A stretch of 64,000 nt of DNA from Staphylococcus phage S6. Position 1 is the stretch's first letter. Each line of letters starts with the position of its first letter. The stretch is from sequence record LC680885.1. One strand, given 5' to 3'. A model generated the notes under the pieces. It saw nothing but the letters and a program-made list of their open reading frames with translations, was not told where the DNA came from and did no database searches. Both the position numbers and the translations under genes were made by a program. Below are positions 28,340-48,733 of this stretch, one piece after another.

Positions 28340-28345
28340 TATAAT

Positions 28346-28376
28346 CCCAATACCTATTACATCAATAGGTATTGGG
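28346..28376. terminator. Bidirectional hairpin terminator ('cccaatacctat..ataggtattggg')
   Basis: 12-bp perfect stem between convergent genes 27698-28339 (+) and 28395-28691 (-). T-rich flanks on both strands. Confidence 0.6.
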
Positions 28377-28394
28377 AAAAATTTAAATTATTTT

Positions 28395-30752: not shown

Positions 30753-30774
30753 ATAATTGAATGAGGTATTTATT

Positions 30775-33877: not shown

Positions 33878-34177
33878 ATGAATGAAATTAAAATAATGGA
33901 TACTGAACTACTACAGGAAGCTGTAGAAGGAAAAGAGAATAACGGTGGAGGTTACGAACATACTCGTACCGTTTTCGAATTCCAAGGAAAACAAGGAGTT
34001 TTCGAAGACACTTCTTGTGGTGATTTCGGTAGCAGATTCTTCATGGAATGGGATGGAAAAATGGCTATGTGGGGAAGTATGATTGATGAAGAACTCGAAT
34101 ACAGTGAATTCGATGAACAAGAACAATCAGAACTTCTAAAGCATTTTAGAGTTCCTGTTTTTGAAGAAACAATCTAG
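33878..34177 (+). CDS. small acidic protein (locally GC-richer moron-like gene)
   Basis: 99 aa. Codon usage is visibly richer in G/C-ending codons (GAATTC, TTCGAA, GGTGGAGG) than its neighbours. Flanked by terminator hairpins on both sides and its own copy of the promoter motif. Confidence 0.5.
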   Translation: MNEIKIMDTELLQEAVEGKENNGGGYEHTRTVFEFQGKQGVFEDTSCGDFGSRFFMEWDGKMAMWGSMIDEELEYSEFDEQEQSELLKHFRVPVFEETI

Positions 34178-34211
34178 GACATTAATGTCCTAGATTTCTT
34201 TTATTTTTTTT
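34174..34211 (+). terminator. Rho-independent terminator (perfect 20-nt palindrome 'ctaggacattaatgtcctag' + T-run)
   Basis: Palindrome overlaps the stop codon and is followed by 'atttcttttattttttttc'. Confidence 0.7.
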
Positions 34212-34233
34212 CTAAAAATATTCTATTTTATGA

Positions 34234-34260
34234 TTAAATATATATTATAAAAATAGATGC
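34234..34260 (+). promoter_or_regulatory. Conserved promoter-like motif copy 4 ('ttaaatatatattataaaaatagatgc')
   Basis: Exact core TTAAATATATATTATAAAAAT, located just after the terminator. Confidence 0.45.
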
Positions 34261-34334
34261 AATTAAATATATTGAAAGATGTTGTTTTATATGTAAAGTT
34301 TTAGAAGAATTTAATAAGGGAGCTGAAATAGATA

Positions 34335-34817
34335 ATGATATATTACAAAAATAAAGTAAATGGTGAAATATACGAAGTTAATGATATTCATAGAAAAGAT
34401 GATGCATTTTATTATGTGTTTGGTAATGAATTTAAAAAAGAAAGAATAGGATTATATGAATCAGTGGGTAAAAAAATTGATTTATTTGATAAAGATAAAG
34501 GACATAAAGAATTAAACTTCCAATTAAATTATGACTCATCTAGATTATTTTTAGTTACACATATGAAATATGATAATAATAATCCTTTTGCACCTAAAGC
34601 AGTAGATTTAAAGAATCAAAATTTTGTCGCATCCGATTCTTCAGAAGATCTTTACTATATATTATATAAAAGAATGTGTAATGCAATAGATATACCTTTA
34701 TTAGATTATAATGTATTATTAAAAGAATTTAATTTTGATAATGAAGATATATTTAAAATAATATCAGAAGATTGTAAAGAAGTAAAAGATTTTAAAATTA
34801 GAAATCTTTTTAAATAA
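34335..34817 (+). CDS. paralog-family protein, subfamily C (tail ..KEVKDFKIRNLFK); paralog of 35551-36036
   Basis: 160 aa. The first ~35 aa 'MIYYKNKVNGEIYEVNDIHRKDDAFYYVFGNEFKKE' and the last ~22 aa are nearly identical to the 35551 gene at both DNA and protein level, while the middle has diverged. Confidence 0.6.
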   Translation: MIYYKNKVNGEIYEVNDIHRKDDAFYYVFGNEFKKERIGLYESVGKKIDLFDKDKGHKELNFQLNYDSSRLFLVTHMKYDNNNPFAPKAVDLKNQNFVASDSSEDLYYILYKRMCNAIDIPLLDYNVLLKEFNFDNEDIFKIISEDCKEVKDFKIRNLFK

Positions 34818-34832
34818 AAGGAGAAATTTTAA

Positions 34833-35534
34833 ATGGAAAATATTAAATTGTATAAAAATCTAGAAAACGGTGATAAATTTACTTTATCTAAAGATGAAAT
34901 TAATAATGGTAGATTTCTTTATAAAGTCATGAAACAAATAAAAAGTAATTTTTATCCATATTATAATTATGAAGACCAACCCATTACAACCAATGGAAAC
35001 TCTTATTTAATTAATAAACAACTGAATTTTCATTTTTATACACATTCTGATATTATTATAAATTTTAAAAATTTAATTGGAATAGATGAAGATATAATAA
35101 TTAAGAGTAATGAAAATAAAGAAAGAAATATTTCATCTTCAATTGTTTGTTTCTCTGATTCTAATACAAATAATGATAGAATTTATGAAAATATATTTCA
35201 AATTGTTTTGAACACAAAAAAGGCTAAGAAAATAAATCGTATGCTAGATAAATATAAAAGCGATAAATATGAAATATCTTCTTATACAATGGATAAAAAT
35301 GAAGTAATTTTTAAAGTTAGTTTCAAACAAGATTATTTGTCTGATAAGAGTAATGACGCTTATGATTCTCTAGATGAATTGATATATTATATGTTAAAGG
35401 ACCTTAGAATTAAGATCGACAATTCGTATATGTATTTTATGGATTATCTAAGATGGAATTTGGAATTTATTGCTGAAGAAATTACTGATAAGGAAGAAAT
35501 TAAAAAATACTTAATTAAAGAAAAATTTAAATAA
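34833..35534 (+). CDS. paralog-family protein (tail ..EITDKEEIKKYLIKEKFK)
   Basis: 233 aa. Canonical family tail. GGAG RBS. Confidence 0.6.
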   Translation: MENIKLYKNLENGDKFTLSKDEINNGRFLYKVMKQIKSNFYPYYNYEDQPITTNGNSYLINKQLNFHFYTHSDIIINFKNLIGIDEDIIIKSNENKERNISSSIVCFSDSNTNNDRIYENIFQIVLNTKKAKKINRMLDKYKSDKYEISSYTMDKNEVIFKVSFKQDYLSDKSNDAYDSLDELIYYMLKDLRIKIDNSYMYFMDYLRWNLEFIAEEITDKEEIKKYLIKEKFK

Positions 35535-35550
35535 GGAAGTGTAAATGGAT

Positions 35551-36036
35551 ATGATATATTACAAAAATAAAGTAAATGGTGAAATATATGAAGTTAATAA
35601 TATTCATAGAAAAGATGATGCATTTTATTATGTATTCAATAATGAATTTAAAAAAGAGAATTCGTCTTTTTATAAATCTTATGGTAAAAAGATTGATTTA
35701 TATGATGAAGACGTAGGAATTATAAAATTGGAGTTTTTCTTAATTTATGATTTTATTAATCTTCATTTAACTACACACTTTTCTTGGGATTTTAATAATA
35801 TTCCTTTTATACCTAAAAATATAGAATTAACAAATCAAAATTTTGTCATATCAGACTCTTCAATTGATCTTTATTATTTATTCTATAAAAGAATATGTGA
35901 TGTGATAGATATAAATATGGCACATTATAATATTCCATTAGGAAAATTTAATTTTGATAATGGAGATATATTTGAAATAATATCAGAAGATTGCAAAGAA
36001 GTAAAAGATCTTAAAGTTAGAAATCATTTTAGATAA
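35551..36036 (+). CDS. paralog-family protein, subfamily C (tail ..KEVKDLKVRNHFR)
   Basis: ATG at 35551 with AAGGAAG 10 nt upstream (track start 35545 is too close to the RBS). Paralog of 34335-34817. Confidence 0.6.
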   Translation: MIYYKNKVNGEIYEVNNIHRKDDAFYYVFNNEFKKENSSFYKSYGKKIDLYDEDVGIIKLEFFLIYDFINLHLTTHFSWDFNNIPFIPKNIELTNQNFVISDSSIDLYYLFYKRICDVIDINMAHYNIPLGKFNFDNGDIFEIISEDCKEVKDLKVRNHFR

Positions 36037-36041
36037 GGAGA

Positions 36042-36227
36042 TTGATAAATATGAGAAAAGAAATTAGAAAAAATGAAAGTAAACAATTGACTTTACAAGA
36101 AAAATGGGAAATTGATGCAGAATTATACAGAGAGAAAAATAAAGACAAGAAAAAAATAAAAGGGCCAATTATAGGAAAGAAAGTTTCTAAAGAAGAAATG
36201 GAAAGAATCTTAAAAGGAGAAGAATAA
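36042..36227 (+). CDS. small basic protein
   Basis: 61 aa, Lys-rich. AAGGAG RBS. Stop overlaps the next start. Confidence 0.4.
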   Translation: MINMRKEIRKNESKQLTLQEKWEIDAELYREKNKDKKKIKGPIIGKKVSKEEMERILKGEE

Positions 36228-36228
36228 A

Positions 36229-36882
36229 ATGTTTAATCACAATATCTTACTATATAAACCTATTAGCATTGATTATAATGATTTTATTGAGTTAAACAAA
36301 GAAAAATATAAAAATGATAGAGAATATATTAAAATGATAAATGTATTTAACTTAATGGAACTGTTAAAAATAGACTCTTTTAAAGATAAAACTTTCTTTG
36401 AAACTGAATGTAAATTAAAATTAAGAGGTTATGATGAATATAAAAATATAAAAGTGGTTTACAATCAATCATTAGACAGTGATCCAATATTCTCTAATTT
36501 AAAAAACTTTAATGCAGAATTAGATATTATAAGTAAAGAAAGAGATAATACTTATATGACTGAAGAATTATTATATGAATACAATATGATGAAAATGAGC
36601 ACATGTATAAATGATAAAGCTAACACTATTACAATTAAAATAAAAAATTTCATTAATTCAAATAAAGAAAATTTTAATAACGATTTTGAATTCCTTATTA
36701 AAGAATTTGAAAATAATTTATTAAAGAATTTAACAGACCTCCATAAATATGAAGACTTACAACTTCTAATTAATAGTGAATATCACAGTTTAAAAGATAT
36801 TAGTGTATATAATGAAAAAATATTTAGACCTGCTACTGATAAAGAGTTTAAGAATTATTTAGTTAAAAAAGGATTTAGATGA
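36229..36882 (+). CDS. paralog-family protein (tail ..TDKEFKNYLVKKGFR)
   Basis: 217 aa. Family tail. AAGGAG RBS. Confidence 0.55.
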   Translation: MFNHNILLYKPISIDYNDFIELNKEKYKNDREYIKMINVFNLMELLKIDSFKDKTFFETECKLKLRGYDEYKNIKVVYNQSLDSDPIFSNLKNFNAELDIISKERDNTYMTEELLYEYNMMKMSTCINDKANTITIKIKNFINSNKENFNNDFEFLIKEFENNLLKNLTDLHKYEDLQLLINSEYHSLKDISVYNEKIFRPATDKEFKNYLVKKGFR

Positions 36883-36891
36883 AAATATGTA

Positions 36892-36917
36892 TTAAATATA
36901 TATTATAAAAATGAGAT
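36892..36917 (+). promoter_or_regulatory. Conserved promoter-like motif copy 5 ('ttaaatatatattataaaaatgagat') followed by hairpin 36913-36943
   Basis: Exact consensus. A 13-bp hairpin 'gagataatgaatt..aattcattatctc' overlaps its 3' end. Confidence 0.45.
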
Positions 36918-36975
36918 AATGAATTAATATAATTCATTATCTCTATATTAATTTAATTAGGAGAGTGAAAAAGAT

Positions 36976-37584
36976 ATGGATTTAAAAGAGAATAAATTTT
37001 ATTATAATAAAGATATTAATGAGCTTTTTATAATTGGTAAGGATGAAAGTGATATTAACGATAAGATAAATAAATTCTATTATAAAAAATTATTAGAAAA
37101 AAATTTAGATTATCATGGTTTAATTAATAATCTTTATTATAATAGAAATATAAATTTTGATTTAATGGATGATGACGATATATATTTTAGTAATATGTAT
37201 AATGGAATTAGAGAATATATTAAGGTGAGTTATGTAGAATTTTCATGTACAAATTTTGAAGATAATGAAGTAATATTACAGTTAGATACTTTTATTGATA
37301 AAAGCAATGATAAAAATCTTTTAGAAGTTCATAAAGATTCGCATGGTGTTACCATAACAATGGTAAAAGGTTTTTATGAAAAAGATCTTATAAATTATAA
37401 TGAATACAAAAATATTTTAGACAAATTATCTGATCTGTTTGACACAATGCTTAAAGAAGAAAATGATGGAAATATTAAAATCTTTATAAATGATATTGAT
37501 ATATTTGAACCTTATGCATATTTTAGAGAGTTAGAAGACGAAAGAGGAATTAAAAATATTTTGGTTAAGAAAAATTTTATATAA
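36976..37584 (+). CDS. paralog-family protein (tail ..ELEDERGIKNILVKKNFI)
   Basis: 202 aa. AGGAGAG RBS. Confidence 0.55.
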   Translation: MDLKENKFYYNKDINELFIIGKDESDINDKINKFYYKKLLEKNLDYHGLINNLYYNRNINFDLMDDDDIYFSNMYNGIREYIKVSYVEFSCTNFEDNEVILQLDTFIDKSNDKNLLEVHKDSHGVTITMVKGFYEKDLINYNEYKNILDKLSDLFDTMLKEENDGNIKIFINDIDIFEPYAYFRELEDERGIKNILVKKNFI

Positions 37585-37598
37585 AGGAGATAGATATA

Positions 37599-38219
37599 AT
37601 GGATGTAAATGAATATATAAATAATCATGATTTTTATAGAGTTGGGAATGACGGTCAAGTATTTGTATTTAATAAAGATATATCAAAAGATGAATTAAAT
37701 TCTAAAATATTTACTAAATTATTTTCATGCGAAAATATAGGAATTATACTGTCTGAATGTGGTCATTATATAATAGATGGAAATAATATATTCTTAAGAA
37801 ATAATGATAAAATATTATTAGTCGAAAATATGACTATTGATATAAGTTTATTTAAAGATGATCTAATTGAATTAAATTTTATATTAAATATTGAATCTGA
37901 TCTTTATTCAAAAATTGGTCCTTTTGAAAAAGATAATCATGATCCTTTTTATTATTATAATACTATTATTCAAATAGAAAATAAAGATAACTTTCAACAT
38001 GAATTAATTTCTCATATAACAAATCATTTTAATAAAATGAGTGATGTTGATTTAATGCTTTTAACTACTAAAAATGAAATTAGATTTAATAAAGATTATA
38101 GTATTAATAAAAAATGTATTGATTTTAAATGTAATTTTAATGAAATTTATAAAATATTTAATAAATTAGAAGATGAAAAAGAAATTAAGAAATATATAGT
38201 AAGAGAAAATTTTAAATAA
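37599..38219 (+). CDS. paralog-family protein (tail ..LEDEKEIKKYIVRENFK)
   Basis: 206 aa. AAGGAG RBS. Confidence 0.55.
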   Translation: MDVNEYINNHDFYRVGNDGQVFVFNKDISKDELNSKIFTKLFSCENIGIILSECGHYIIDGNNIFLRNNDKILLVENMTIDISLFKDDLIELNFILNIESDLYSKIGPFEKDNHDPFYYYNTIIQIENKDNFQHELISHITNHFNKMSDVDLMLLTTKNEIRFNKDYSINKKCIDFKCNFNEIYKIFNKLEDEKEIKKYIVRENFK

Positions 38220-38232
38220 GGATAGAATAAAT

Positions 38233-38796
38233 ATGAATTTAGATAATATTGTAATATTAAAAAAGAAAAATGATGGTAAATTTGACAATAACAAATTTAT
38301 AGAATTTAATCATAATAATATTAATAATGATGAAATATTAAGTCTTTCTTTAATTACTCTATATACGAGCGTGTATGCATTTTATATAAAAAGTGATGTA
38401 AAACCTGACAATTTTGTTAGTTATTTAGCTAATTTTTATTTAGAAATAGATGGGCATTTAAAAGGACCTTTAAATATAACACATGATGAAAATAATAGAA
38501 TACTTATAATTTATAAAGGAAGACTACCACAAGATATTTTTGAGATTAGAGAATTTAACGTAAATACTAAATTATATGCATACTTAATTAAAGGTGGTAA
38601 TTACAATACGGTAGAAGATGATCTAATCAAATCAATAATCAATGGTTCAGAGTATATAATAAATAATGAAAGAATTAAGCCAAAAATTATTATTAATGGA
38701 GCATATAAGGATATTACAAATGTATTAAATTATTTTGAAAAACTTACTGATGAAAAAGAAATTAAAAAATATCTAATTAAAAAAAATTTTAAGTAG
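38233..38796 (+). CDS. paralog-family protein (tail ..LTDEKEIKKYLIKKNFK)
   Basis: 187 aa. AAGGA RBS. Confidence 0.55.
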   Translation: MNLDNIVILKKKNDGKFDNNKFIEFNHNNINNDEILSLSLITLYTSVYAFYIKSDVKPDNFVSYLANFYLEIDGHLKGPLNITHDENNRILIIYKGRLPQDIFEIREFNVNTKLYAYLIKGGNYNTVEDDLIKSIINGSEYIINNERIKPKIIINGAYKDITNVLNYFEKLTDEKEIKKYLIKKNFK

Positions 38797-38813
38797 AATA
38801 AGGAGGATTAAAT

Positions 38814-39437
38814 TTGGATAAGTCATTATATGTATCGGATATATTCGATGAGAAAGTTATAGGAAGAAAGGATCTTAATAAAGATGAACTTTTTGATTTG
38901 TCATTTAATACAATTTTAAATAATTCTGCTGACACTAGATTTAATAAAGAAGGAATTAGGTTAATGTTATCATTTTCAAAAGGATTAATTTTAAAATTTG
39001 ATTATGCAGACAAATATTTTTATGTGAAAGATTTTATATTTTTAATAGAAAAAGTTGATGGTAACTATGAATTTAATTTTACATTAAGTATTCCAGAATT
39101 TGCAGACAGTGAAATTGAAATTGAATTAGGAATTTTTGAATCGGATAAAGGTCATAGAGAATTTTATTTTAATGATTTTTCTTATTATAAAGAAGGAAAA
39201 ACTTTATTAGAAAGAGCTAAAGAATATTTAATATACGATATTTTTAATAATTATGGTGTTATTTTTAGTATTTTTTCATTAAAAGACAAAAATAGAATTT
39301 TAACAGACGATAATTTTATCATAGATAATAATGATATAGATGAATTTTATAGTCTAAAAAATATAGATAACGTATTTAGAGAAGTAACAAACGAAAAAGA
39401 AATTAAAGAATACTTAGTTCAGAAAGGATTTAGATAA
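38814..39437 (+). CDS. paralog-family protein (tail ..VTNEKEIKEYLVQKGFR)
   Basis: 207 aa. TTG start after AAGGAGG. Its final codons (AAAGGA) serve as the RBS of the next gene. Confidence 0.5.
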   Translation: MDKSLYVSDIFDEKVIGRKDLNKDELFDLSFNTILNNSADTRFNKEGIRLMLSFSKGLILKFDYADKYFYVKDFIFLIEKVDGNYEFNFTLSIPEFADSEIEIELGIFESDKGHREFYFNDFSYYKEGKTLLERAKEYLIYDIFNNYGVIFSIFSLKDKNRILTDDNFIIDNNDIDEFYSLKNIDNVFREVTNEKEIKEYLVQKGFR

Positions 39438-39438
39438 A

Positions 39439-40050
39439 ATGAAAATAGACTTAGAATCTTATGAATACTATTACCATGATGAAGAAAAAATATTAGTTCC
39501 AGTATCATTAGATATGAAGAAAGAAAATGCAAATGAGTTAATGACGTTTGAATATTATAAGAAAGTTTTTAAAAGTTTTAATCATAATATATTTCATAAA
39601 AGAATTCATGATGATAATATACTATTTAGTACTCGATTAAATAAAGTGATTAACAAAAGTACTGGTATATCAATACCTACTTATGATTTATATATACATT
39701 TTGAAATAGATAACTCATTAAATATTATTTCCTTAGAATTAAGTTTTTCAATGGATACAAATCACTTTGATTTATTTAGAACATTCTATAAAGATAAAAT
39801 AGAAGTTATAAATTTTTCAAAGACAGATTTTTTAAAATATAATCAAAATGTAGATAATTTAGAAGATAAAATGGCATGTCTATTAGCTAAATTATTCTTT
39901 GATATGCACAATGATGAAAATGAAGATATTGAAATATATGTAGACAATTTTTACCATGAATCACTAGACATAGCTAAGCCATATAAATATTTTAGATTGA
40001 TGGGAGAAAAAGAAATAAAAAATCTAGCAACTAAAAAAACTTTTAAATAA
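39439..40050 (+). CDS. paralog-family protein (tail ..GEKEIKNLATKKTFK)
   Basis: 203 aa. ATG lies 10 nt after the AAAGGA formed by the K-G codons of the upstream gene. Confidence 0.55.
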   Translation: MKIDLESYEYYYHDEEKILVPVSLDMKKENANELMTFEYYKKVFKSFNHNIFHKRIHDDNILFSTRLNKVINKSTGISIPTYDLYIHFEIDNSLNIISLELSFSMDTNHFDLFRTFYKDKIEVINFSKTDFLKYNQNVDNLEDKMACLLAKLFFDMHNDENEDIEIYVDNFYHESLDIAKPYKYFRLMGEKEIKNLATKKTFK

Positions 40051-40107
40051 TTTAATTAACTTTCTTTTATATTAATAAATACAATGAAAGAGAGTTGAAT
40101 ATAATAA

Positions 40108-40887
40108 ATGTCTGAAACTAATGAAATTGATTTAATATCACAAATCAATGATATGATGGATGAATATAAGATGTTAGTAAAATTTAAAGATAAAATGGAA
40201 AATAAAGAAATTCAATTAGAAAATCGTATACAGGATTTAACTAAGAATTTGAAATATCCTAAACATACATTCGTATCTAATATGGAAGCTAACATTATTA
40301 GTGTAGAAAAAGAAATTAAAGACACTATTATGCAAATGAAAAATGTTAAAAAAGATATTATTGACTTAACTATGAAAGCTCAGAAAATGGCTGAAGATGA
40401 TGAATCTGAAGATAATTATAAAACTCTTGCTAAAAATGTACTTAATGAGCTTAATAATATGTCTAATAAAGATATTTTAAACAGTATGATGGAACCTGAA
40501 GAAGTAAATGATGAAGATACTGATTTTAGTGAAGAATTAGATGCAAAATTGTCACAATTAGATGAAGAAGAGAAATCTATTAATAAAGAAGTAGATCAAA
40601 AAGAAGAATTGAGTCAAGAAATTAATGAACTAGATCAACAAGATTTATCTTCTATATTAAAAGTCTATAAAGGTACATTACAATTCTTTGTTGTAGGAGA
40701 TTCTCCTGAAGAATATGAATTAGTAGTTGCTGATATGGATATGAATATTATTGAAGAAGATGAAATGGAAGATGAATACCCAGAATTATTTACTATGACT
40801 AGAGATCTTATCTTTGAAGATGTTGAAGGTAATGATGAAATAGTTAAAGATGAATTTGGAAATATTTATCAAAAAGCAGAATTTTAA
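40108..40887 (+). CDS. highly acidic coiled-coil protein
   Basis: 259 aa. Runs such as 'EEDEMEDEYPELF', 'DEDTDFSEELD'. GAGAG RBS. Confidence 0.55.
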   Translation: MSETNEIDLISQINDMMDEYKMLVKFKDKMENKEIQLENRIQDLTKNLKYPKHTFVSNMEANIISVEKEIKDTIMQMKNVKKDIIDLTMKAQKMAEDDESEDNYKTLAKNVLNELNNMSNKDILNSMMEPEEVNDEDTDFSEELDAKLSQLDEEEKSINKEVDQKEELSQEINELDQQDLSSILKVYKGTLQFFVVGDSPEEYELVVADMDMNIIEEDEMEDEYPELFTMTRDLIFEDVEGNDEIVKDEFGNIYQKAEF

Positions 40888-40895
40888 ATTATTTT

Positions 40896-40929
40896 ACCCC
40901 ATAATATATTAATACAATATATTATGGGT
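40896..40929 (+). terminator. Hairpin terminator ('accccataatatat..atatattatgggt')
   Basis: Near-perfect 14-bp stem followed by an AT-rich T tract. Confidence 0.5.
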
Positions 40930-40956
40930 ATTTATTATATATGAAGGCTATGTGTT

Positions 40957-41322
40957 ATGGGATTTGAGTTAACGATATATGGAATAAATAAAAGTAAGCA
41001 AAGAGATTTACAATGGTATATTAATCATCATAGATATACTAAAGAGAAGAATCATTTATTTGAATTGGAATTATATAAACCACATGAACTTTTTGATGTA
41101 TTAAAATATAAAGTAATTAATTATAAAAATGAAGATGGTTTTGATATTCAAGTAATAGATGAAAATACTTTAAAAGAGTTAATGGAAAATGAATTAAGAG
41201 AAAATAATTTTGAATATGGCTTAACTCAATATTATGAACTTATGACTGAAATATCCAGAAATAAATATTTTATAAATAATGATAAATTTGATTTTTACCT
41301 AATTTTAGATACATCATTTTAA
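40957..41322 (+). CDS. hypothetical protein
   Basis: 121 aa. Confidence 0.45.
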   Translation: MGFELTIYGINKSKQRDLQWYINHHRYTKEKNHLFELELYKPHELFDVLKYKVINYKNEDGFDIQVIDENTLKELMENELRENNFEYGLTQYYELMTEISRNKYFINNDKFDFYLILDTSF

Positions 41323-41343
41323 TAATAGGAGAGTGAAATAGAT

Positions 41344-41469
41344 ATGTTAAAAAGATTATACAATTTATTAACTAAGAAAAAATTTGAAAGAAGATTATAC
41401 GACTTTAGATTTAATTATCAAGATCATGAACATTTAAATCAAGTTCATAGAGATTCAAATAATATTTAA
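41344..41469 (+). CDS. small ORF (41 aa) not in the supplied track
   Basis: ATG at 41344 with AGGAGAGTG 8 nt upstream. Encodes 'MLKRLYNLLTKKKFERRLYDFRFNYQDHEHLNQVHRDSNNI'. Verified in-frame stop at 41467-41469. Confidence 0.4.
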   Translation: MLKRLYNLLTKKKFERRLYDFRFNYQDHEHLNQVHRDSNNI

Positions 41470-41488
41470 TATGAAAGGATGATTATTA

Positions 41489-41890
41489 ATGCTATCAGAA
41501 TACAGATTAAATTCAAGTAAAGAAGACATTAAACAGCTATTAAGAGATTATGGTTTTAAAAAAGATTCTTATACTAAAGCTTTATTATATAGAAAACGTG
41601 TAACTGACCCAAATGATATTTTATTTATAGTGGCCGAAGTAGTTATTGAAACTAATTCAGATCTAGTTAAATTAAATTACTATGATAGTAAACATAATAG
41701 ATTTAATCCTTCTAATGAATCACCAGAAGTTCAAAAAGGTTTAAGTATATTAGAAGATATGAAAGAAAAAGAATTATTAATTGAACCAGAGTTAACTCAA
41801 AATGAAGAAGAAAAAGAAGTTCTTGATAGACTTAAAGAACAACGTGAAGAAATGGAAAATGGTCAAGTATCACCCAATTCTGAAAATTAG
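41489..41890 (+). CDS. hypothetical protein
   Basis: 133 aa. AAAGGATG RBS. Confidence 0.5.
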   Translation: MLSEYRLNSSKEDIKQLLRDYGFKKDSYTKALLYRKRVTDPNDILFIVAEVVIETNSDLVKLNYYDSKHNRFNPSNESPEVQKGLSILEDMKEKELLIEPELTQNEEEKEVLDRLKEQREEMENGQVSPNSEN

Positions 41891-41891
41891 A

Positions 41892-41917
41892 ATAAATATA
41901 TATTATAAAAATGTTAT
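41892..41917 (+). promoter_or_regulatory. Conserved promoter-like motif copy 6 ('ataaatatatattataaaaatgttat') + hairpin 'tcccaatacta..tagtattggga'
   Basis: Begins 2 nt after the stop of the 41489 gene. Hairpin at about 41917-41945. AAAGGAG RBS of the 41971 gene follows. Confidence 0.45.
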
Positions 41918-41970
41918 CCCAATACTATTAAATTAGTATTGGGATTATTATAATAAAAGGAGTTAAGTAA

Positions 41971-42747
41971 ATGGAGAAAATTAAAAAATACTACATTAGT
42001 AAATCGAAAGATGAATTTATGGAATTAACTTTCAATGAAAATGAAACACTCTATTTTGACTTTAAGTGGAAAGTTTTAAGTGAGCTATTCACTACAATGC
42101 AAATAAATTATAATAAGAGATTTCTTATATCTCATGAAGAACATGATGACAATGGTTTAGTTGGTCTTAGAATAAATTTCAATGCTTTTCCCACAGTTAA
42201 ATACAAATATAAGGGTAAGAAAAATAAAATGGAACTTCTTATATACGCTATAATACGCTTTAGTCTAAATGAAGAAGACGATAATTATATTAAGTTTAAA
42301 GCTGTTCCTTTATATAATAATAGTGAAATAGGGAAAAGATTATTTAGTAAAAGATCTGGTATATTTGATGATAATGGTGAACTAAATTTACCGCATGACT
42401 TTAATGAAGAAGTTATGATTCGTTTTTTAAAATATTTTAAAAGTCATATACAAAAAGGTAAAAGACCTTTAGAACTCAAGGATGATTTACACAAGATGTT
42501 TACTACTACAAATAAATTAATTTTTGAATTACTAGATCAGATACAAGATCATTCAGATATTGAATTTCTTATTGCACCCGATTGGGATTTTAGTGGTAAA
42601 GAAATGGAAAAAGAAAAAGGTTTTAGTTTTGAAAAAGAATATGATAAGTATATCAGTTTAAATGATTTCGATGTTGATGCATATTTTAGAGAAATAACTG
42701 ATGAGAAAGAGATTAAAAAATTTAAAGTTAAGAAAGGATTTTCCTAA
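41971..42747 (+). CDS. paralog-family protein (tail ..EITDEKEIKKFKVKKGFS)
   Basis: 258 aa. Also has the internal 'QIQDHSDIEFLIAPDW' block shared with the 44346 member ('QIRDHFDIEFFVSDG'). Confidence 0.6.
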   Translation: MEKIKKYYISKSKDEFMELTFNENETLYFDFKWKVLSELFTTMQINYNKRFLISHEEHDDNGLVGLRINFNAFPTVKYKYKGKKNKMELLIYAIIRFSLNEEDDNYIKFKAVPLYNNSEIGKRLFSKRSGIFDDNGELNLPHDFNEEVMIRFLKYFKSHIQKGKRPLELKDDLHKMFTTTNKLIFELLDQIQDHSDIEFLIAPDWDFSGKEMEKEKGFSFEKEYDKYISLNDFDVDAYFREITDEKEIKKFKVKKGFS

Positions 42748-42748
42748 T

Positions 42749-43567
42749 ATGAAAAATAATACAAAATATTTTATAGATAAAAAAAGAGATGAATTAATTG
42801 AAATTGATAAAGAATATCTTAATCGATATGAGTATATTGCACACGTATTAACTGTCATTGATATGAATAAGCTTTTATATATTGAAGATCATGCTAGATC
42901 CTTTATAAATGGTATTAATATTGAAGAAAATGATGTGGGAAATGGATTGACTTTTAATAATATAGAAATTCATAATAATATCCATTTCAAAAATATAAAT
43001 AGTAAAAATAATGCGTATAAAAATTTTAATACCGATTTTTATATAAACTTCTTTATTGATAGAATGGATAAAGTTAAAACTCAGAATTTTAAGTTAAAAT
43101 TTAATTTTTATAATTCAATATATAAAGAATATTTTAATAAAATTACCAATAATTTATTAAATGAAGATAATTTAGTCAATGAAGGAGTAAATAAAGAAAT
43201 AAGATCTCTTATGAATTTTGAATTATTTAAAAAAGAGTTATATAATACTAAATACAATAATAGTGAATATTTAAATCTTTTTGAAAATTCATCATATATG
43301 AAGGACAATGTTATTGGATTTATAAATAAATTTGAAGGATTATTTTCTAGTGTAATATACCAAAATAACCTTAGTGTATTAATGACTCTTTATGAAATAA
43401 AATACATGTATGAAGATGACATAGATTTTTATATTAATTTTTATAATGAAAATTATGGTTTAGTTAATATATTAGAATTAATCGAAAGTGATGAAAATGA
43501 TTTATTTAAAGAAATTAAAACAGAAAAAGAAATGAAAGCGTTTAAAGTTAGAAAAGGATTCAAATAA
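42749..43567 (+). CDS. paralog-family protein (tail ..EIKTEKEMKAFKVRKGFK)
   Basis: ATG at 42749 lies 2 nt after the upstream stop. The RBS AAAGGA is formed by the K-G-F codons of the upstream gene (track start 42701 is an internal overlap). Confidence 0.55.
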   Translation: MKNNTKYFIDKKRDELIEIDKEYLNRYEYIAHVLTVIDMNKLLYIEDHARSFINGINIEENDVGNGLTFNNIEIHNNIHFKNINSKNNAYKNFNTDFYINFFIDRMDKVKTQNFKLKFNFYNSIYKEYFNKITNNLLNEDNLVNEGVNKEIRSLMNFELFKKELYNTKYNNSEYLNLFENSSYMKDNVIGFINKFEGLFSSVIYQNNLSVLMTLYEIKYMYEDDIDFYINFYNENYGLVNILELIESDENDLFKEIKTEKEMKAFKVRKGFK

Positions 43568-43588
43568 TATAAAGAAAGGATTTTTGTA

Positions 43589-44329
43589 ATGGAATATAAT
43601 AATTACTATAGATATAAATTAGATGGAAAAATACTTCACTTTGATATGGATAGAACTGATTTACGTAGAGATAAATTGGCTGAAATATTTACTAAAGTTA
43701 AGATGGAATATATTTATAAAGATAAAAAAATGATTAAAAAAGCAAGAAACTTTATTTACCGATCTAATCTTTCTTTAGAGTATTCTCATTTTAAAGATAA
43801 AGTATTTGTAATCAAACAAATTTCTAAAATGCTAAGTAAAAACAATGTAAGGGATTTATTAATTTACGATACGGATCTTAGTTTAGAATTTAATTCTATT
43901 TTAGACGGTGGTATATTTAAAAAAGATTTTCCAGAAGGATCCTTTTATGAAAAAATAGAAAGTAATATGAATAGAAAATATTTAATTTTAAGTGATAATA
44001 TAAGACACACTAGTGAAAGTTTTGTTGATTTATATGATAAAGATTATATTTTAAATTTTGAAGAAGTAGAATTGCTAGTCAAAGAATTTAATAAAACTCT
44101 TTTAAATTATCTTATGGATTTAATGAGTTATGGAAATCTAGAATTAAAAGTTAGAAAATCGGAGTTAGCATATTTTATGACAGGAATATATACAAAAATG
44201 GAAGAAAACGAAGATAAGTTATTCCCTATATTTGATTATAAATTTTTACTTAATGAATCTGGATTATTTGAAGAGATTACAGATGAGAAAGTTATTAAAG
44301 AATATTTAGTGAAAAATAATTTTAAATAA
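43589..44329 (+). CDS. paralog-family protein (tail ..EEITDEKVIKEYLVKNNFK)
   Basis: 246 aa. Last ~80 nt are nearly identical at DNA level to the ends of the next two genes. Confidence 0.6.
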   Translation: MEYNNYYRYKLDGKILHFDMDRTDLRRDKLAEIFTKVKMEYIYKDKKMIKKARNFIYRSNLSLEYSHFKDKVFVIKQISKMLSKNNVRDLLIYDTDLSLEFNSILDGGIFKKDFPEGSFYEKIESNMNRKYLILSDNIRHTSESFVDLYDKDYILNFEEVELLVKEFNKTLLNYLMDLMSYGNLELKVRKSELAYFMTGIYTKMEENEDKLFPIFDYKFLLNESGLFEEITDEKVIKEYLVKNNFK

Positions 44330-44345
44330 AAAGGAGATCAATGTA

Positions 44346-45128
44346 ATGAGTATAAATAAAAGTCATAAAAAATATTTTTTGAGTAAAATGACAGATGATT
44401 TATTTGAAGTTACTAACTTATACAGATATAATATAAATGAAGATTATTTATATCTACCTCAATTACTTTCTAATTTACAAGTAAAAAGTAATGAAGAAAT
44501 AAATATACTTTCTGAAGAGATTGTTGGTAAAGATGATAATGGAGAGAATTTATGGTCAGGAACTATATCAGCTGGATATATTTTTCCAGTTATCAAATAT
44601 AATGTTAATAATAAAAAGACAACGAATATACTTATTATTGATTTTGATATTATTTTCAACGAATCAATAGAAAATGAAAACTATTTAAAAGTTAGAATTG
44701 AAAATCCATACTCTTCAGGTATAAATTCAATAATTTTTAATAGCGTTATTGGCAATATATTAGATGAATCCAATTCTTTAAAAGTACCTTTTAGATTTCA
44801 TATAAATAGCATGGAAGATTTAATATCAGATTTTAATAATGGTACAGAAAATGATTTTAGAAATAATAAAGATTTATACCAAATATTAGTTGAAGTAAAT
44901 AGTTCTATATTGGAAATTTTATCACAAATTAGAGATCATTTTGATATAGAATTCTTTGTATCAGATGGTTGTTTCTCGCACATACCAGAGAATGATAAAA
45001 GAGATAATGATGATATAGATGATAAATACTATAATTTATTTGACGAGTATAAAATGTCTGGAGTATTTGAAGAGATTACAGATGAAAAGATTATTAAAAA
45101 ATATTTAGTGAAAAATAATTTTAAATAA
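44346..45128 (+). CDS. paralog-family protein (tail ..EEITDEKIIKKYLVKNNFK)
   Basis: 260 aa. N-terminal 'KKYFLSKMTDDLFEV' is shared with the 45144 gene ('KKYFLCKINDELFEV'). Confidence 0.6.
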   Translation: MSINKSHKKYFLSKMTDDLFEVTNLYRYNINEDYLYLPQLLSNLQVKSNEEINILSEEIVGKDDNGENLWSGTISAGYIFPVIKYNVNNKKTTNILIIDFDIIFNESIENENYLKVRIENPYSSGINSIIFNSVIGNILDESNSLKVPFRFHINSMEDLISDFNNGTENDFRNNKDLYQILVEVNSSILEILSQIRDHFDIEFFVSDGCFSHIPENDKRDNDDIDDKYYNLFDEYKMSGVFEEITDEKIIKKYLVKNNFK

Positions 45129-45143
45129 AAGGAGATTAATATA

Positions 45144-45941
45144 ATGGGTGTAATTAAAAGTAATAAAAAATACTTCCTATGTAAAATAAATGATGAATTA
45201 TTTGAAGTTGATAAGAACAATAGAGATTCATTTTTATATGACTATTTACCTTTAATAATAGCTGAAAAAATAATTAATTCAACTGAAAAAGATTCATATG
45301 AAACTAGTGCATTGGATGTTTATTATAAAAAAGAAGATAACATAATTGAAGGGAATTTAAAATTTTTAGCAAGATGTTTACTTCCCGTCCTGTATAATTT
45401 CAATAATAAAAATTCATTTAAAACAGTTATGACTATCGCAGATTTTAAATTTAAAAGAGATGCTAATAAATCTACTTTTAGTATAGATAAAAATAGTGTT
45501 AATGATAAAATACTATTTCAAATGAGACCTTTAGGAAATGAAATTGATGATATTTTATTTAATAGTATTATAAGTGACCTTTTAAATGAAAATGACGAAA
45601 TAGAAATGAAACAAATGTTATTAATTGGTAATTTTGAAAAATTGTTAAGTGAAATTGATAATCAAAATATAAAACATCATGATGATTTTAAAATTTTAAT
45701 CAAAGATATATTCAATATTTATCTTAATTTATTAAACTCATTAAGTCATCATTTTAATATTGAATTTTTCTTTTCTGAATCTTCTTTTCTAGACATGTTA
45801 AATATTTATGATTATGATATTATTAATAATAAAGATAGTTATAAAATAAATATTTTTGAAGATGATTTAGATGGAATATTTGAAGAGATTACAGATGAAA
45901 AATTTGTTAGAGAATATTTAGTGAAAAATAATTTCAAATAA
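45144..45941 (+). CDS. paralog-family protein (tail ..EEITDEKFVREYLVKNNFK)
   Basis: 265 aa. AAGGAG RBS. Confidence 0.6.
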   Translation: MGVIKSNKKYFLCKINDELFEVDKNNRDSFLYDYLPLIIAEKIINSTEKDSYETSALDVYYKKEDNIIEGNLKFLARCLLPVLYNFNNKNSFKTVMTIADFKFKRDANKSTFSIDKNSVNDKILFQMRPLGNEIDDILFNSIISDLLNENDEIEMKQMLLIGNFEKLLSEIDNQNIKHHDDFKILIKDIFNIYLNLLNSLSHHFNIEFFFSESSFLDMLNIYDYDIINNKDSYKINIFEDDLDGIFEEITDEKFVREYLVKNNFK

Positions 45942-45997
45942 AATTAAAAATTTATAGTAACGGAAATATATTTATCAATAGGAGTTGAAACTGGATA

Positions 45998-48733
45998 ATG
46001 AAGATTAAAAGATTAAAGTTAAAGAATTTTATCGGTATTTATGCTGGTATGGGATTAAAAGAAGTTGAAATTGATTTTAGTAAAAGTAAAAATAATATGA
46101 TTATGCTTCTTGGAGATAACGCTTCAGGTAAGACGACAGTTATGTCTAATCTTAATCCATATAGAGAAACTAATGATCAACGTAAAACTATAGTATTAGA
46201 AGATGAAAAAGGTATAAAAGAGATTGATTATATTAAGGGTAATGATGTTTATGAAATTAAACATCATTATGGTAAAAACAGTTCTCAAAATAAATCATTC
46301 ATTAAGAAAAATGGTGAAGAACTTAATGAAAATGGTGGTATTAAATTATTCAATGAAATAGTAGATAAAGAATTAGGTGTATCTAAAGAATACTTTACTG
46401 TAGGTCGTTTAGGCGATAACGTATCAAACTTCATTGACTATACTACAGGTGATCGTAAATCATATATCAATAAATTTGTACCTAATATTGATAGATACTT
46501 AGAAGCTTATAAAGTAGCTAATGAGAAATTAAAAATTATTACTAAAGATTTAAAATCACTTAGATTTGATTTAGACAAATATAAAGAATTTGATGAAATC
46601 AAAAAAGAAAAAGAGAATTTAGAAACTTTAATTGATCAATTACAAAATGAACTTGATGAAGCTAATAAAGATAAAACAACTCATGAAACTAAAATGAATT
46701 CTATCATGGAAGATAAGTACAAAGAGATTCATCCAACTGAATATAAAAATCAATTAATTAATGAAATTAATGAACTTAATCAAGAATTAGAAAAAGAAAG
46801 AAAGTTAAAAGAAGATAATGAGAATTTAAATAAATATACTATTGAATCCGCTAATGAGAAAAAAGATAAAATAGATACTATATTAAATAATACTAATAAT
46901 GAGTTGACTTCTGTTGAAAAAGATAAAGAGAATAATCAAGATAAATTAGATGATTTAATCAGTAGAAAATCTAAAATAGAATCTCGTATGAATGCTATCA
47001 AATTTAATGAAGATTATGATGCTTCTGATGAAATTGATTCAATTCTTGAAGGATATAAAGAAGATTTAGAAGGTATTAAAGATGATGTAGATATTTCTAG
47101 AGGGTCTTTTGTAAGTGAATTCGGTTTACAAATTAAAGATAATATTAAAGAGGATTCATTAAGATTATATGTAAATGATTTAATTTCTAAGGTAGATAAT
47201 TTTAAAGAATTTATTAATGATAATGAATTTAAATATGGTTCTATTCGTGGAGATTTTGAAAGTGAAATTAAAGATAATAATGAAAAAATTTCTATGAACC
47301 AGAATGAATTTAATGAAATTAATACTAAGCTTAATCAAATTAAAGGCAAATCAGACTTATTAAAAATATTAGATCAAAAAGATCATGATCACTATAATGA
47401 ATGTGTATTTGTTCCTTTAGTAGCTGACTTTAAAGACAATGAATTTGATTCAATCTCTGAATTAGAAAATAAAGGTAATCAACTTTATAAAGATAATCAA
47501 GAATTAGAAAAAGATAATAAATTATTATCTAATCATATTGACTTATTACGTAAATTTAATGACATACTTACTAGTAGAAATAGTTTAATTGAATATATTG
47601 GTTTTGAAATGATTGATATTGATAGTATTGAAGAAATATTTACAAATGGTAATACATTCTCTAGTGAACTAAATAGACTTAATTCATTAATTGAAAAGAC
47701 AAATGAAATTCGTACTAATGAAACTAATAGAGATAAATTGACTATTGAATTAGAGAGAAAAGAAAATGCTCTTAAAGAAGATTATTCTAATAAGAAAATA
47801 TTAGATCAATATAAAGAAGATAAAGAAGATTTAGTTAAACAAATTGAAGAAATTAAAAATAAAAATAATGAAATTTCTGAGAATCTTAATTATCTTAATG
47901 GTCGTAAAGAAAAAGCAATTACTAACTTAAATATTATTAATGAATTTATTAATCTAACAGAGAGATCTGAAGAAATTAAATTAAAAATGAAAGATAAAAA
48001 TGATATAGTTGATGACATTGATAAGGATCTTTCAAAATTAAGTAATTTATATGAACTTAATCAAAAAGCAGACAATAAAATTCAATCTATTAAAGATAAT
48101 TTAACTATGAAGAAAAATGATTTAGAATCTACTAAAGAAAAATACTTTGCAGTTAATTCTATTATTACTAAGATTGATGAAATTGAATCAGTGTTATGGA
48201 AATATAATATGGTGGTAGATTCATTAAATCCTAAGAAAGACTCTATACCATTAATATTCATTACTAATTATCTTAAAGATATTGCAGTAAGTACTAATGA
48301 ATTACTTTCAGTTGCTTATAATAATTCATTTAAAATTGACTTTGACTTAACAGATAAAGATTTCTTTATTAATGTGTATAAAGGTAATGGAACTGAGCTG
48401 AAAGATATTAAAGAAGCTTCTCAAGGAGAAACAGCTTTAACTAATATTAGTTTATCTTTATCATTATTAAACAAAGTATCTCAAGATTATAATATTCTAT
48501 ATTTAGATGAAATGGATTCAACGTTAGATTCTAATAATAGAAGAAGATTTGTTGATGTAATTGATAGACAAATTGAATTAATGGGTCTAGAGCAAGTATT
48601 CTTAATTAGTCATAATGATGAATTCTATAGTGCTAATATTGACTTAATTTTACTTAAAGGATATGAAAGTAAAATTGATATTAATAATGAAGAAATGATG
48701 CAAGGTAAAAATGTATTATTTAAAGTAAACTAA
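45998..48733 (+). CDS. Rad50/SbcC-like recombination/repair ATPase (T4 gp46-like)
   Basis: N-terminal Walker A 'LLGDNASGKTTVMSNL'. Long coiled-coil. C-terminal signature 'ASQGETAL', Walker B 'ILYLDEMDS', H-loop 'FLISHNDEF'. Confidence 0.75.
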   Translation: MKIKRLKLKNFIGIYAGMGLKEVEIDFSKSKNNMIMLLGDNASGKTTVMSNLNPYRETNDQRKTIVLEDEKGIKEIDYIKGNDVYEIKHHYGKNSSQNKSFIKKNGEELNENGGIKLFNEIVDKELGVSKEYFTVGRLGDNVSNFIDYTTGDRKSYINKFVPNIDRYLEAYKVANEKLKIITKDLKSLRFDLDKYKEFDEIKKEKENLETLIDQLQNELDEANKDKTTHETKMNSIMEDKYKEIHPTEYKNQLINEINELNQELEKERKLKEDNENLNKYTIESANEKKDKIDTILNNTNNELTSVEKDKENNQDKLDDLISRKSKIESRMNAIKFNEDYDASDEIDSILEGYKEDLEGIKDDVDISRGSFVSEFGLQIKDNIKEDSLRLYVNDLISKVDNFKEFINDNEFKYGSIRGDFESEIKDNNEKISMNQNEFNEINTKLNQIKGKSDLLKILDQKDHDHYNECVFVPLVADFKDNEFDSISELENKGNQLYKDNQELEKDNKLLSNHIDLLRKFNDILTSRNSLIEYIGFEMIDIDSIEEIFTNGNTFSSELNRLNSLIEKTNEIRTNETNRDKLTIELERKENALKEDYSNKKILDQYKEDKEDLVKQIEEIKNKNNEISENLNYLNGRKEKAITNLNIINEFINLTERSEEIKLKMKDKNDIVDDIDKDLSKLSNLYELNQKADNKIQSIKDNLTMKKNDLESTKEKYFAVNSIITKIDEIESVLWKYNMVVDSLNPKKDSIPLIFITNYLKDIAVSTNELLSVAYNNSFKIDFDLTDKDFFINVYKGNGTELKDIKEASQGETALTNISLSLSLLNKVSQDYNILYLDEMDSTLDSNNRRRFVDVIDRQIELMGLEQVFLISHNDEFYSANIDLILLKGYESKIDINNEEMMQGKNVLFKVN

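Follow-up and report, generated by a model that had tools for sequence, protein, structure and literature searches.

What keeps one short peptide at the very end of a long row of phage genes whose products otherwise differ in sequence? The question is raised by Staphylococcus phage S6 (record LC680885.1), a uracil-DNA jumbo phage in the clade of PALS_2, DC4 and MarsHill. A 64,000-nucleotide stretch of its DNA, which we call the window, contains a plus-strand tandem array of genes at positions 34335–45941. The products of 14 array genes, and of at least six genes elsewhere in the window, carry a C-terminal tail with the consensus F-x-E-I-T-D-E-K-E-I-K-K-Y-L-V-K-x-N-F-K, directly followed by the stop codon. 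What purifying selection maintains is the tail peptide and not a promoter, ribosome-binding site (RBS) or terminator, and tails have been exchanged between genes with sequence-unrelated bodies. The family is real, restricted to the clade, and without known relatives. Whether its members are orphan, early, effector-like proteins with an autonomous C-terminal docking module that is read by one common partner is, in our judgement, evenly balanced.

The array was delineated from a listing of open reading frames (ORFs) and with a position-specific scoring matrix (PSSM); twelve core tails served to build it, and all six frames of the window were scanned with a cut-off of 8 bits. Both bear out the plus-strand tandem array with a common tail that an earlier, sequence-only reading of the window had described. 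Eleven hits other than the training tails exceeded the cut-off, eight of them directly before a stop codon and none on the minus strand. In the full genome of the related phage vB_SauM-UFV_DC4 (DC4), 29 of the 30 hits of at least 13.8 bits immediately precede a stop codon. More than 8 bits were reached by the C-termini of 35 of the 260 DC4 genes and by 10 of 76,978 internal positions, and the tail carriers of DC4 number 35–38 of 260 genes, about 14%. An unbiased count found 249 DC4 gene pairs with at least six of the last 12 residues in common, compared with five to six pairs at control positions. The strong DC4 hits are all on the plus strand, and the family fills two separate regions of this genome, at 1.6–37 kb and 164–200 kb. 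The second cluster (164306–199743) holds about 15 tail genes of 138–297 amino acids (aa) with the variant ITEKEYKxxLVKxxFK, and their N-terminus is often MKYYKLxxxG.

The position of the tail is invariant. It ends exactly at the C-terminus in all 77 array-family genes of six phages, unlike the N-terminal, cleaved signal of T4, and is neither extended nor truncated in any of them; read-through of the stop codon would mostly add just 1–14 codons. The penultimate residue is Phe in 77 of 77 genes, position −6 is V, I or T in 77 of 77, and position −10 is K or R in 76 of 77. As in an SspB-type tail, the place at the free C-terminus is fixed. The sole strong internal match in DC4 (EDEEGNKMIIPKENFK, 15.7 bits, at 33400–33448) lies within UFVDC4_00042, an additional array member that the window lacks and that has a normal C-terminal tail besides; the internal match may be a relic of gene fusion.

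The members are soluble, mostly acidic proteins of 75–400 aa with highly divergent bodies. Where the sequence-only reading had counted sixteen members in the interval, the ORF listing gives 14 tail-family genes of 160–272 aa and four unrelated genes without the tail (36042, 40108, 40957 and 41489). The endings KNNFK, KENFK, KKGFR and KKTFK that it had noted are all found. The array members are:

34335–34817, plus strand: 160 aa, divergent tail EDCKEVKDFKIRNLFK (17.9 bits); paralog of 35545 (65% identical).
34833–35534, plus strand: 233 aa, tail TDKEEIKKYLIKEKFK.
35545–36036, plus strand: 163 aa, tail EDCKEVKDLKVRNHFR (19.3 bits).
36229–36882, plus strand: 217 aa, tail ATDKEFKNYLVKKGFR; compared with its orthologs, the body is ~41% and the tail 94–100% identical.
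36976–37584, plus strand: 202 aa, tail EDERGIKNILVKKNFI.
37599–38219, plus strand: 206 aa, tail EDEKEIKKYIVRENFK.
38233–38796, plus strand: 187 aa, canonical tail TDEKEIKKYLIKKNFK (39.8 bits).
38814–39437, plus strand: 207 aa, TTG start, tail TNEKEIKEYLVQKGFR.
39439–40050, plus strand: 203 aa, tail MGEKEIKNLATKKTFK.
41971–42747, plus strand: 258 aa, tail TDEKEIKKFKVKKGFS; belongs to the subgroup with KKY[YF] and QIxDHxDIEF.
42749–43567, plus strand: 272 aa from the ATG at 42749, tail KTEKEMKAFKVRKGFK; the longest ORF, from 42701, overlaps the preceding gene.
43589–44329, plus strand: 246 aa; body sequence-unrelated to that of 44346, last 66 nt 93% identical to those of 44346.
44346–45128, plus strand: 260 aa; modelled with AlphaFold (predicted local distance difference test, pLDDT, 71).
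45144–45941, plus strand: 265 aa; the final array gene, followed by a gene for an SbcC-like ATPase.

Six tail-ending genes lie outside the array, with stops at 15957, 25571, 26992, 27606, 28339 and 31353, and weaker tail-like endings occur at the gene ends 14391, 15136, 15432 and 49057:

15730–15957, plus strand: short helical member of 75 aa, tail YDVKEIKEYLVRKNMK (26.8 bits).
24384–25571, plus strand: weak member by score, 395 aa, tail KLKKLIMNETVKKTFI (9.5 bits).
26333–26992, plus strand: member of 219 aa, tail LSESEVKKYKIKEGFK (21.6 bits).
26995–27606, plus strand: member of 203 aa, tail ITEKEYKENIVKDNFK, the variant prevailing in the second DC4 region (20.3 bits).
27698–28339, plus strand: member of 213 aa, tail ITKKEYTDNLVKENFK (14.8 bits); a terminator-like hairpin comes next.
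30757–31353, plus strand: member of 198 aa, tail CDEKEFKINKVKNNFI (21.4 bits), between the DNA polymerase and deoxyribonucleotidase genes; the start annotated in DC4 is 18 nt downstream.
14185–14391, 14858–15136 and 15157–15432, plus strand: short helical genes, possible members, ending in VKENLK, VKENFK and IKDNLK, all below 8 bits; an unrelated gene, 14391–14846, is interspersed among them.
48770–49057, plus strand: possible short member of 95 aa, ending in VIKDTFK, below 8 bits.

Across the window the family thus comprises 20 secure and four weak members (14185, 14858, 15157 and 48770), fewer than the 25–30 of the sequence-only reading. Together they occupy ~14.3 kb, or 22% of the window, rather than close to half of its coding capacity.

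A conserved 3′ end could also be a regulatory or recombination signal in the DNA, with the likeness of the peptides as its by-product. The location of the tails, 1–90 nt upstream of the following start codon, would suit such an element, as would the 90–93% DNA identity of three of them and the evident unequal crossover at tails. In addition, a non-member, the 687-aa gene at 22248–24311, has an ending that resembles the tail (...YLVSRIFI). Its stop codon overlaps the early promoter AAATATATATTAT at 24300–24329, which serves 24384; this ending is probably not the family tail, because it was probably imposed by the overlapping promoter.

The substitution patterns speak for the peptide. Pairs of identical residues among 35 DC4 tails use the same codon 2,965 times, compared with 2,877 expected from genome usage (ratio 1.03). 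In 28 ortholog pairs (window versus MarsHill, Machias and SA1), the synonymous divergence (dS) of the last 20 codons, 0.39–0.46, is as high as that of the body (0.43), and the ratio of nonsynonymous to synonymous divergence (dN/dS) is 0.22–0.27 in the tail and 0.49 in the body. The tail of 36229 differs from that of its SA1 ortholog by a dS of 1.56 and a dN of 0.023. Orthologs are on the whole 82% identical in the tail and 70% in the body, and tails remain 94–100% identical where bodies have fallen to ~41%. Codons in the tails vary synonymously (GTT, GTA or GTG for Val; TTA, CTA, TTG or CTT for Leu), stop codons of all three kinds are in use, and replacements are conservative (K/R, I/V, F/Y). 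Stop-to-start spacing is not fixed, with extremes of an overlap and more than 90 nt, and what follows a tail is in several cases a promoter or terminator instead of a gene. Six-frame scans of the window and of DC4 found no out-of-frame or minus-strand copies of the tail. Because synonymous change is free, codon use is genome-like, dS matches that of the body, dN/dS is lower and spacing varies, we conclude that selection acts on the peptide; conservation of a DNA element similar to promoter-early stem-loop (PeSL) cassettes was rejected, and we regard it as extremely improbable. The claim of a protein-level tail in the sequence-only reading survives, since codon usage, dS and dN/dS gave no sign of the regulatory DNA that it had named as its own refutation.

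If the tail is a selected peptide, are the bodies related? Body homology is demonstrable only within two subgroups, 34335/35545 and 41971/42749/44346/45144. When the last 20–22 residues are left out, the only BLASTP matches are between 34335 and 35545 (65% identity) and among the members of the group 41971/44346/45144. Profile comparison with hhalign of 11 ortholog groups from six phages, tails removed, found one of 55 pairs related and 54 negative; groups 0 and 5 bring 42749 into the 41971/44346/45144 group. The N-terminal KKYFLxKxxDELFEV and internal QI[QR]DHxDIEF blocks, taken previously as proof of true paralogs, do exist, but are confined to the four-gene subgroup. True paralogy is therefore supported within the subgroups but not demonstrable for the family at large, given the 54 negative pairs and an N-terminal motif that could not be cross-validated outside the array. 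That motif, a hairpin-like pattern Y-[YF]-K...G/D...h-x-h, can be recognized in the majority of the array members and in part of the second DC4 cluster. It accompanies the tail in 13 of 15 genes, compared with 25 of 245 others, by a regular expression that was chosen post hoc (Fisher 1.6e-10). As a hallmark of the superfamily it was rejected: a PSSM trained on the array recovered one second-region DC4 member, and internal noise scored similarly. Because this cross-validation failed in the second DC4 region, we consider the motif a feature of array subfamilies only.

The AlphaFold2 model of 44346, computed from a 15-sequence alignment (pLDDT 71, predicted template modelling score 0.65), is composed of an N-terminal hairpin, a β-sheet, a long α-helix, a C-terminal strand, a helix and an extended end. 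The tail forms a strand, F-E-E-I at residues 241–244, and a helix, E-K-I-I-K-K-Y-L at residues 247–254; the block 241–250 has the highest pLDDT, 87, and the N-terminal hairpin reaches 82. The tail module thus spans ~20 residues: a strand F-x-E-I, an N-capped short helix T-D-E-K-E-I-K-K-Y-L, and the terminal V-K-x-N-F-K-COOH. A second model, of 37599 (five-sequence alignment), had a pLDDT of 37 and was unusable. Foldseek comparison of the 44346 model with the PDB gave a best E of 0.17, and a fold comparison with BFVD retrieved only the family's own members, with template modelling (TM) scores of ~0.2 across subfamilies. The members lack transmembrane segments and are mostly acidic, with net charges of −2 to −22, and the tails are net basic, with charges of 0 to +5. 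A membrane-targeting amphipathic helix of the MinD/FtsA type was rejected, as the hydrophobic moment of the array tails is 0.08–0.34 compared with 0.57 for FtsA; the calculation is crude, and the Escherichia coli MinD reference itself scored 0.27. A likeness of E-I-K-K-Y-L-V-K-K-G-F to half-SAP/HeH motifs was dropped, since Pfam and the PDB give it no support.

The model raises the alternative that the tail is purely structural. One ancestral fold would have decayed except for a C-terminal strand–helix–strand core, possibly clasped to the N-terminal β-hairpin, and the tail would be kept for holding each protein together, not for an outside reader. Tail and hairpin are the most confident segments of the model, seven hydrophobic positions are conserved within 20 residues, the N-terminal motif goes with the tail at the frequencies given above, hhalign aligns the N-termini in register where it finds weak similarity between groups, and the array demonstrably grew by tandem duplication. 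Against a shared fold stand the 54 negative profile comparisons, the low TM scores of cross-subfamily BFVD matches, the failure of the N-terminal motif in the second genomic region, and helical proteins of 75–95 aa that bear the tail without the hairpin. A structural helix would also tolerate extra C-terminal residues somewhere, yet none of the 77 genes has an extension. We find this alternative rather doubtful, and the history of the array provides further evidence against it.

The array is evolutionarily plastic. In six phages its slot holds 12–15 members, with gains, losses and replacements, and the copy number and cassette content vary as the sequence-only reading expected. The embedded 259-aa and 133-aa genes are constant. 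Relative to MarsHill, the dN/dS of bodies is 0.31–0.63, and that of the two embedded genes and of SbcC is 0.04–0.05, so that bodies are about ten times less constrained than neighbouring genes. The dS of adjacent array genes ranges from 0.03 to 1.1, about 40-fold (0.03 for 35545, 1.1 for 36229 and 0.92 for 39439); the array therefore has a mosaic history in which single cassettes were replaced by divergent alleles.

The breakpoints of this reshuffling are located at the tails. The last 66 nt of 43589, 44346 and 45144 are 90–93% identical and have the rare codons GAG and GTG in common; the sequence-only reading had recognized these near-identical 3′ ends, although it put them at ~80 nt and a somewhat lower identity. 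Identity collapses abruptly ~22 codons from the stop, and the bodies, at ~23%, are at background. The junctions 43589-to-44346 and 44346-to-45144 are alike from the tail through the RBS to about codon 25 of the gene that follows, and the junction of 45144 with SbcC has only the tail in common. Such a pattern is left by unequal crossover and gene conversion whose breakpoints fall at the tails; the abrupt boundary and the duplicated junction uphold the recent gene conversion proposed earlier. Some orthologs bear the tail of a neighbouring gene, for example MarsHill 7627, whose LVQKGFK ends like window gene 38814. Tail DNA was thus transplanted between genes with unrelated bodies and neither gene was lost, which argues against a purely structural role.

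Tails also change together between lineages. The most distant homolog (P0018) is encoded on a 17-kb metagenomic contig, L016, from sample ERR10857033, whose SbcC-like protein is 60% identical to that of the window. L016 has the same array with 13–14 tail genes, which retain Phe at −2, Lys at −10 and Lys at −13. Its tails have Asn at −9 in 13 of 13 cases, a position that is mixed in the window, and Ile is commoner than Val at −6. Lys occurs at −3 in 10 of 13 L016 tails and one of 14 window tails; a basic residue occurs at −5 in four of 13 and 13 of 14, respectively. Tail identity within the two genomes (0.47 and 0.55) exceeds that between them (0.43; permutation p < 0.0002), and the ortholog lineages 37599/L016_5507 and 44346/L016_10001, which predate the split, each match the dialect of their own genome. 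The tail set thus shifts together between lineages, which is concerted evolution. Gene conversion or co-evolution with one common partner could each produce it, and both may have contributed. If each of 13 different bodies packed its own tail independently, a family-wide move of the basic residue from −5 to −3 would hardly be expected.

When are these genes expressed? The Staphylococcus jumbo phages of this clade are kin of the Bacillus phages AR9 and PBS1, presumably contain uracil DNA and encode two multisubunit RNA polymerases. In AR9, the injected virion RNA polymerase transcribes from early promoters with the experimental consensus AAATATATATTAT-(6N)-G (PMC5312081), and an AR9-type early motif is predicted upstream of 29 MarsHill genes. 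The array contains these control elements:

34236–34255, plus strand: AR9-type early promoter AAATATATATTAT-N6 upstream of 34335; the predicted +1 is A, not G.
36894–36913, plus strand: AR9-type early promoter, exact AAATATATATTAT-N6-G, upstream of 36976.
41894–41913, plus strand: AR9-type early promoter with exact consensus, upstream of 41971.
40898–40928, plus strand: terminator-like hairpin after 40108–40887, containing TATATTAT (at 40918) without the AAATA prefix.

Because AR9-type promoters lie upstream of 34335, 36976 and 41971, the array is predicted to form three early operons. The TATATTAT copy at 40918 was dropped as a promoter, as it is probably disqualified by its position within the hairpin and the missing AAATA prefix. 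Over the whole window TATATTAT is not enriched (40 copies versus 35 expected); on the plus strand between 18.4 and 63 kb, 10 of 14 copies are intergenic, compared with 6.4% expected (p ~1e-9). A hairpin with a 14-bp stem (36913–36943) starts at the predicted +1 of the 36894–36913 promoter, so an early transcript would begin with a stem-loop. This recalls the promoter-early stem-loop cassettes of T4-type phages. Palindromic hairpins at 28345–28377, after 27698–28339, and at 41916–41945, just 3′ of the 41894–41913 promoter, have the common arm ATCCCAATAC...GTATTGGGAT, and half a copy follows 27606; the recurring hairpin may be a repeated terminator or 5′-leader element.

Expression timing bears on the suggestion, made in the sequence-only reading, that the tail directs proteins into the capsid. 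Like T4 internal proteins, the members would enter the prohead and later be ejected into the next host. The overall logic is alike, with hypervariable proteins that have a common short terminal peptide in a variable locus, and jumbo phages do package many ejection proteins. Packaging is disfavoured because early promoters head the array, 41 of 43 AR9 virion proteins are late, and the shallow DC4 virion proteome, with 15 detected proteins (PMC10638138), includes no member. Moreover, the motif is C-terminal without a sign of a prohead-protease site, and at least 35 packaged species would be a large load. We regard packaging as very unlikely. Import into a phage nucleus was likewise rejected as a role of the tail, because AR9-like phages lack chimallin and nuclear import uses no terminal signals.

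Among the functions suggested by the sequence-only reading, docking to one shared partner fits best, because the C-terminal register is invariant, tails are interchangeable between unrelated bodies, and the family-wide shift is lineage-specific. We hypothesize that the injected virion RNA polymerase probably transcribes the array at the start of infection from the AR9-type promoters. The tail would then serve as an autonomous docking handle, with one common partner reading it together with the free carboxyl end; possible partners are machines of the phage or of the host, for instance a protease or unfoldase, a chaperone or a scaffold. The variable bodies would supply each member's own target or activity, as host-takeover or anti-defence effectors would. 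The array expands, contracts and is reshuffled through tandem duplication and through unequal crossover located at the tails, and gene conversion together with a common constraint would hold the tails of one phage in the same dialect. A diversifying host-takeover or anti-defence role is plausible in view of the predicted early promoters, raised dN/dS and turnover.

Several points weigh against docking. Gene conversion alone can yield lineage-specific dialects without a common partner, and the constraint on the tail is only about twice that on the body. In the 44346 model the confidently predicted strand and helix, with their conserved hydrophobic positions, would fit self-packing equally well, and the association of the N-terminal hairpin-like motif with the tail in the array would fit a purely structural N-to-C clasp. 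Early timing is predicted from promoter likeness to a Bacillus phage, and the virion proteome that speaks against packaging comprises 15 proteins only.

Two more specific forms of the docking idea can be distinguished. The tail may be a phage-private address tag, with a single phage or host receptor reading F-K-COOH and the preceding helix; we put this forward tentatively, as a possibility. If so, ~35 otherwise unrelated early proteins would be clients of one machine, such as an unfoldase or protease, the GroEL-like chaperonin of the phage, or a factory for replication or transcription, and receptor–tag co-evolution would account for the joint dialect change of a lineage's tails. Among phage early proteins, such a tag would be the first case of a described linear sorting or docking signal that serves a whole cohort. 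As a special case of the shared partner, the tail could instead be a C-terminal degron or processing site, through which one phage or host protease or unfoldase clears or activates the whole early cohort at the late switch. C-terminal degrons and tethering peptides, such as the ssrA tag and the ClpX-binding tail of SspB, act in this way. The invariant free C-terminal place, the penultimate aromatic and terminal basic residues, the seemingly common expression from predicted early promoters, and several zincin-type proteases annotated in AR9-group phages are consistent with timed removal. However, 20 conserved residues including a folded helix exceed the usual needs of a degron, and the tail, which ends in F-K and not in hydrophobic residues or Ala, is not known to resemble any Gram-positive degron. 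We consider timed removal unlikely.

How far does the family reach? Megablast of region 34000–46000 against 50,697 phage records matched nine Staphylococcus jumbo phages only, best PALS_2 (94.8% over 87% of the query) and DC4 (98.2% over 58%); MarsHill, Madawaska, Machias and SA1 are among the others. Matches in tblastn with the 22-residue tail (E ≤ 10) were limited to the same nine Staphylococcus jumbo phages. Single-sequence searches of 5.8 billion proteins gave 11 homologs for 44346 and three for 37599, and an exhaustive profile search of 1.84 billion representatives gave 10. All homologs from these collections bear the tail, and those with source names are from Staphylococcus jumbo phages. 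A 45-aa tail profile scored 78 candidates in the 5.8-billion-protein collection, none with E ≤ 10; a 20-residue motif cannot reach significance at that size. A scan of IMG/VR with the family alignment gave 63 pattern matches, of which none was confirmed. Neither bodies nor tail matched anything outside the clade in Pfam, PHROGs, PADLOC, PDB or BFVD, in agreement with the earlier statement that no described family could be assigned. None of the 286 AR9 genes bears the tail, and the statistic on the last 12 residues is at background in AR9. In AR9 the corresponding slot, flanked by the genes for virion RNA polymerase β′ (g145) and SbcC (g139), spans about 3 kb and is occupied by five small unrelated genes. 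Hence the 11.6-kb array represents an expansion specific to the clade, at a hotspot syntenic with AR9. All genes of the family are annotated as hypothetical proteins, and the published accounts of MarsHill, Madawaska and Machias and of DC4 mention no paralog family or common C-terminal motif.

The four unrelated genes embedded in the array are:

36042–36227, plus strand: 61 aa, no tail.
40108–40887, plus strand: acidic, 259 aa, no tail.
40957–41322, plus strand: 121 aa, no tail.
41489–41890, plus strand: 133 aa, no tail.

The genes 40108–40887 and 41489–41890 are kept in every relative, the divergent contig L016 included, experience strong purifying selection and have no Pfam match; their products could be candidate partners of the tail family. 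The 259-aa product is very acidic and looks like a coiled coil by sequence. The window, PALS_2 and SA1 have the 121-aa gene, in whose place DC4, MarsHill and Machias have a short ORF of 42–56 aa. The window has a GC content of mostly 19–27%, and nearly every gene from 12.6 kb onward is on the plus strand. Upstream of the array, the gene for the N-terminal part of the virion RNA polymerase β′ (32222–33733) is uninterrupted. It is split into three exons in MarsHill and Machias, with a homing endonuclease gene within the splitting sequence in MarsHill, and is immediately followed by an additional 569-aa gene in PALS_2.

The early genes of jumbo phages are mostly unexplained, and lineage-specific expansions are usually merely listed. 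A portable C-terminal peptide on about one in seven genes offers a single experimental handle on a probable early cohort. Staphylococcus jumbo phages are transducing phages and therapy candidates; the partner of the tail could reveal a hub of their infection programme, and the tail could be used to tag engineered cargo for delivery to such a hub. The variable bodies provide a ready collection of proteins that probably act in host takeover or against defence in S. aureus. They also form a pool of candidates for the clade's uracil-DNA glycosylase inhibitor; none has been identified in Staphylococcus uracil-DNA jumbo phages, and tested candidates were negative (PMC10303552). The locus also illustrates clearly how an array evolves when unequal crossover and gene conversion act at a boundary that is itself coding.

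Viruses are already known to have both lineage-specific expansions of paralogs and terminal address peptides, as in T4 internal proteins, poxvirus ankyrin (ANK)/PRANC proteins and phage G. In papers on this clade and in a full-text search we found no description of a strictly C-terminal peptide of ~20 residues on ~14% of a phage's genes, probably of the early cohort, with unalignable bodies and concerted evolution. The T4-type internal proteins with a capsid targeting sequence are similar in being divergent small proteins from a plastic locus, with one short terminal address peptide and variation between phages. The T4 capsid targeting sequence is N-terminal, has about 10 residues, is cleaved by the prohead protease and marks late, packaged proteins. 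In contrast, the peptide described here is C-terminal, about twice as long and unrelated in sequence, is encoded behind predicted early promoters, and was found on none of the detected DC4 virion proteins.

Close parallels are also provided by the poxvirus ankyrin/PRANC (F-box-like) proteins, the MGF360/505 families of African swine fever virus (ASFV) and Bacillus phage G, which has a zinc-ribbon expansion of ~35 copies (PMC7824862). These are lineage-specific tandem paralogs that combine a variable, target-binding part with a conserved C-terminal module, evolve fast and change in copy number. In the poxvirus PRANC case, the C-terminal module docks each member onto one host machine. Those families consist of recognizable domains (ankyrin, F-box-like, zinc ribbon), whereas body and tail of the phage S6 family match no domain model and the partner is hypothetical. 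The ClpX-binding tail of SspB and the ssrA tag are similar in that a short peptide at the extreme C-terminus is read by one machine, and the register of the phage tail is likewise invariant. This likeness is one of logic only: the phage tail is longer, partly helical and without sequence match. The PeSL cassettes of T4-type phages are early modules reshuffled at short boundary repeats, much as the array, with its early promoters and hairpins, is reshuffled at its tails. PeSL cassettes are non-coding regulatory DNA, whereas the repeated boundary of the array is coding and constrained as a peptide.

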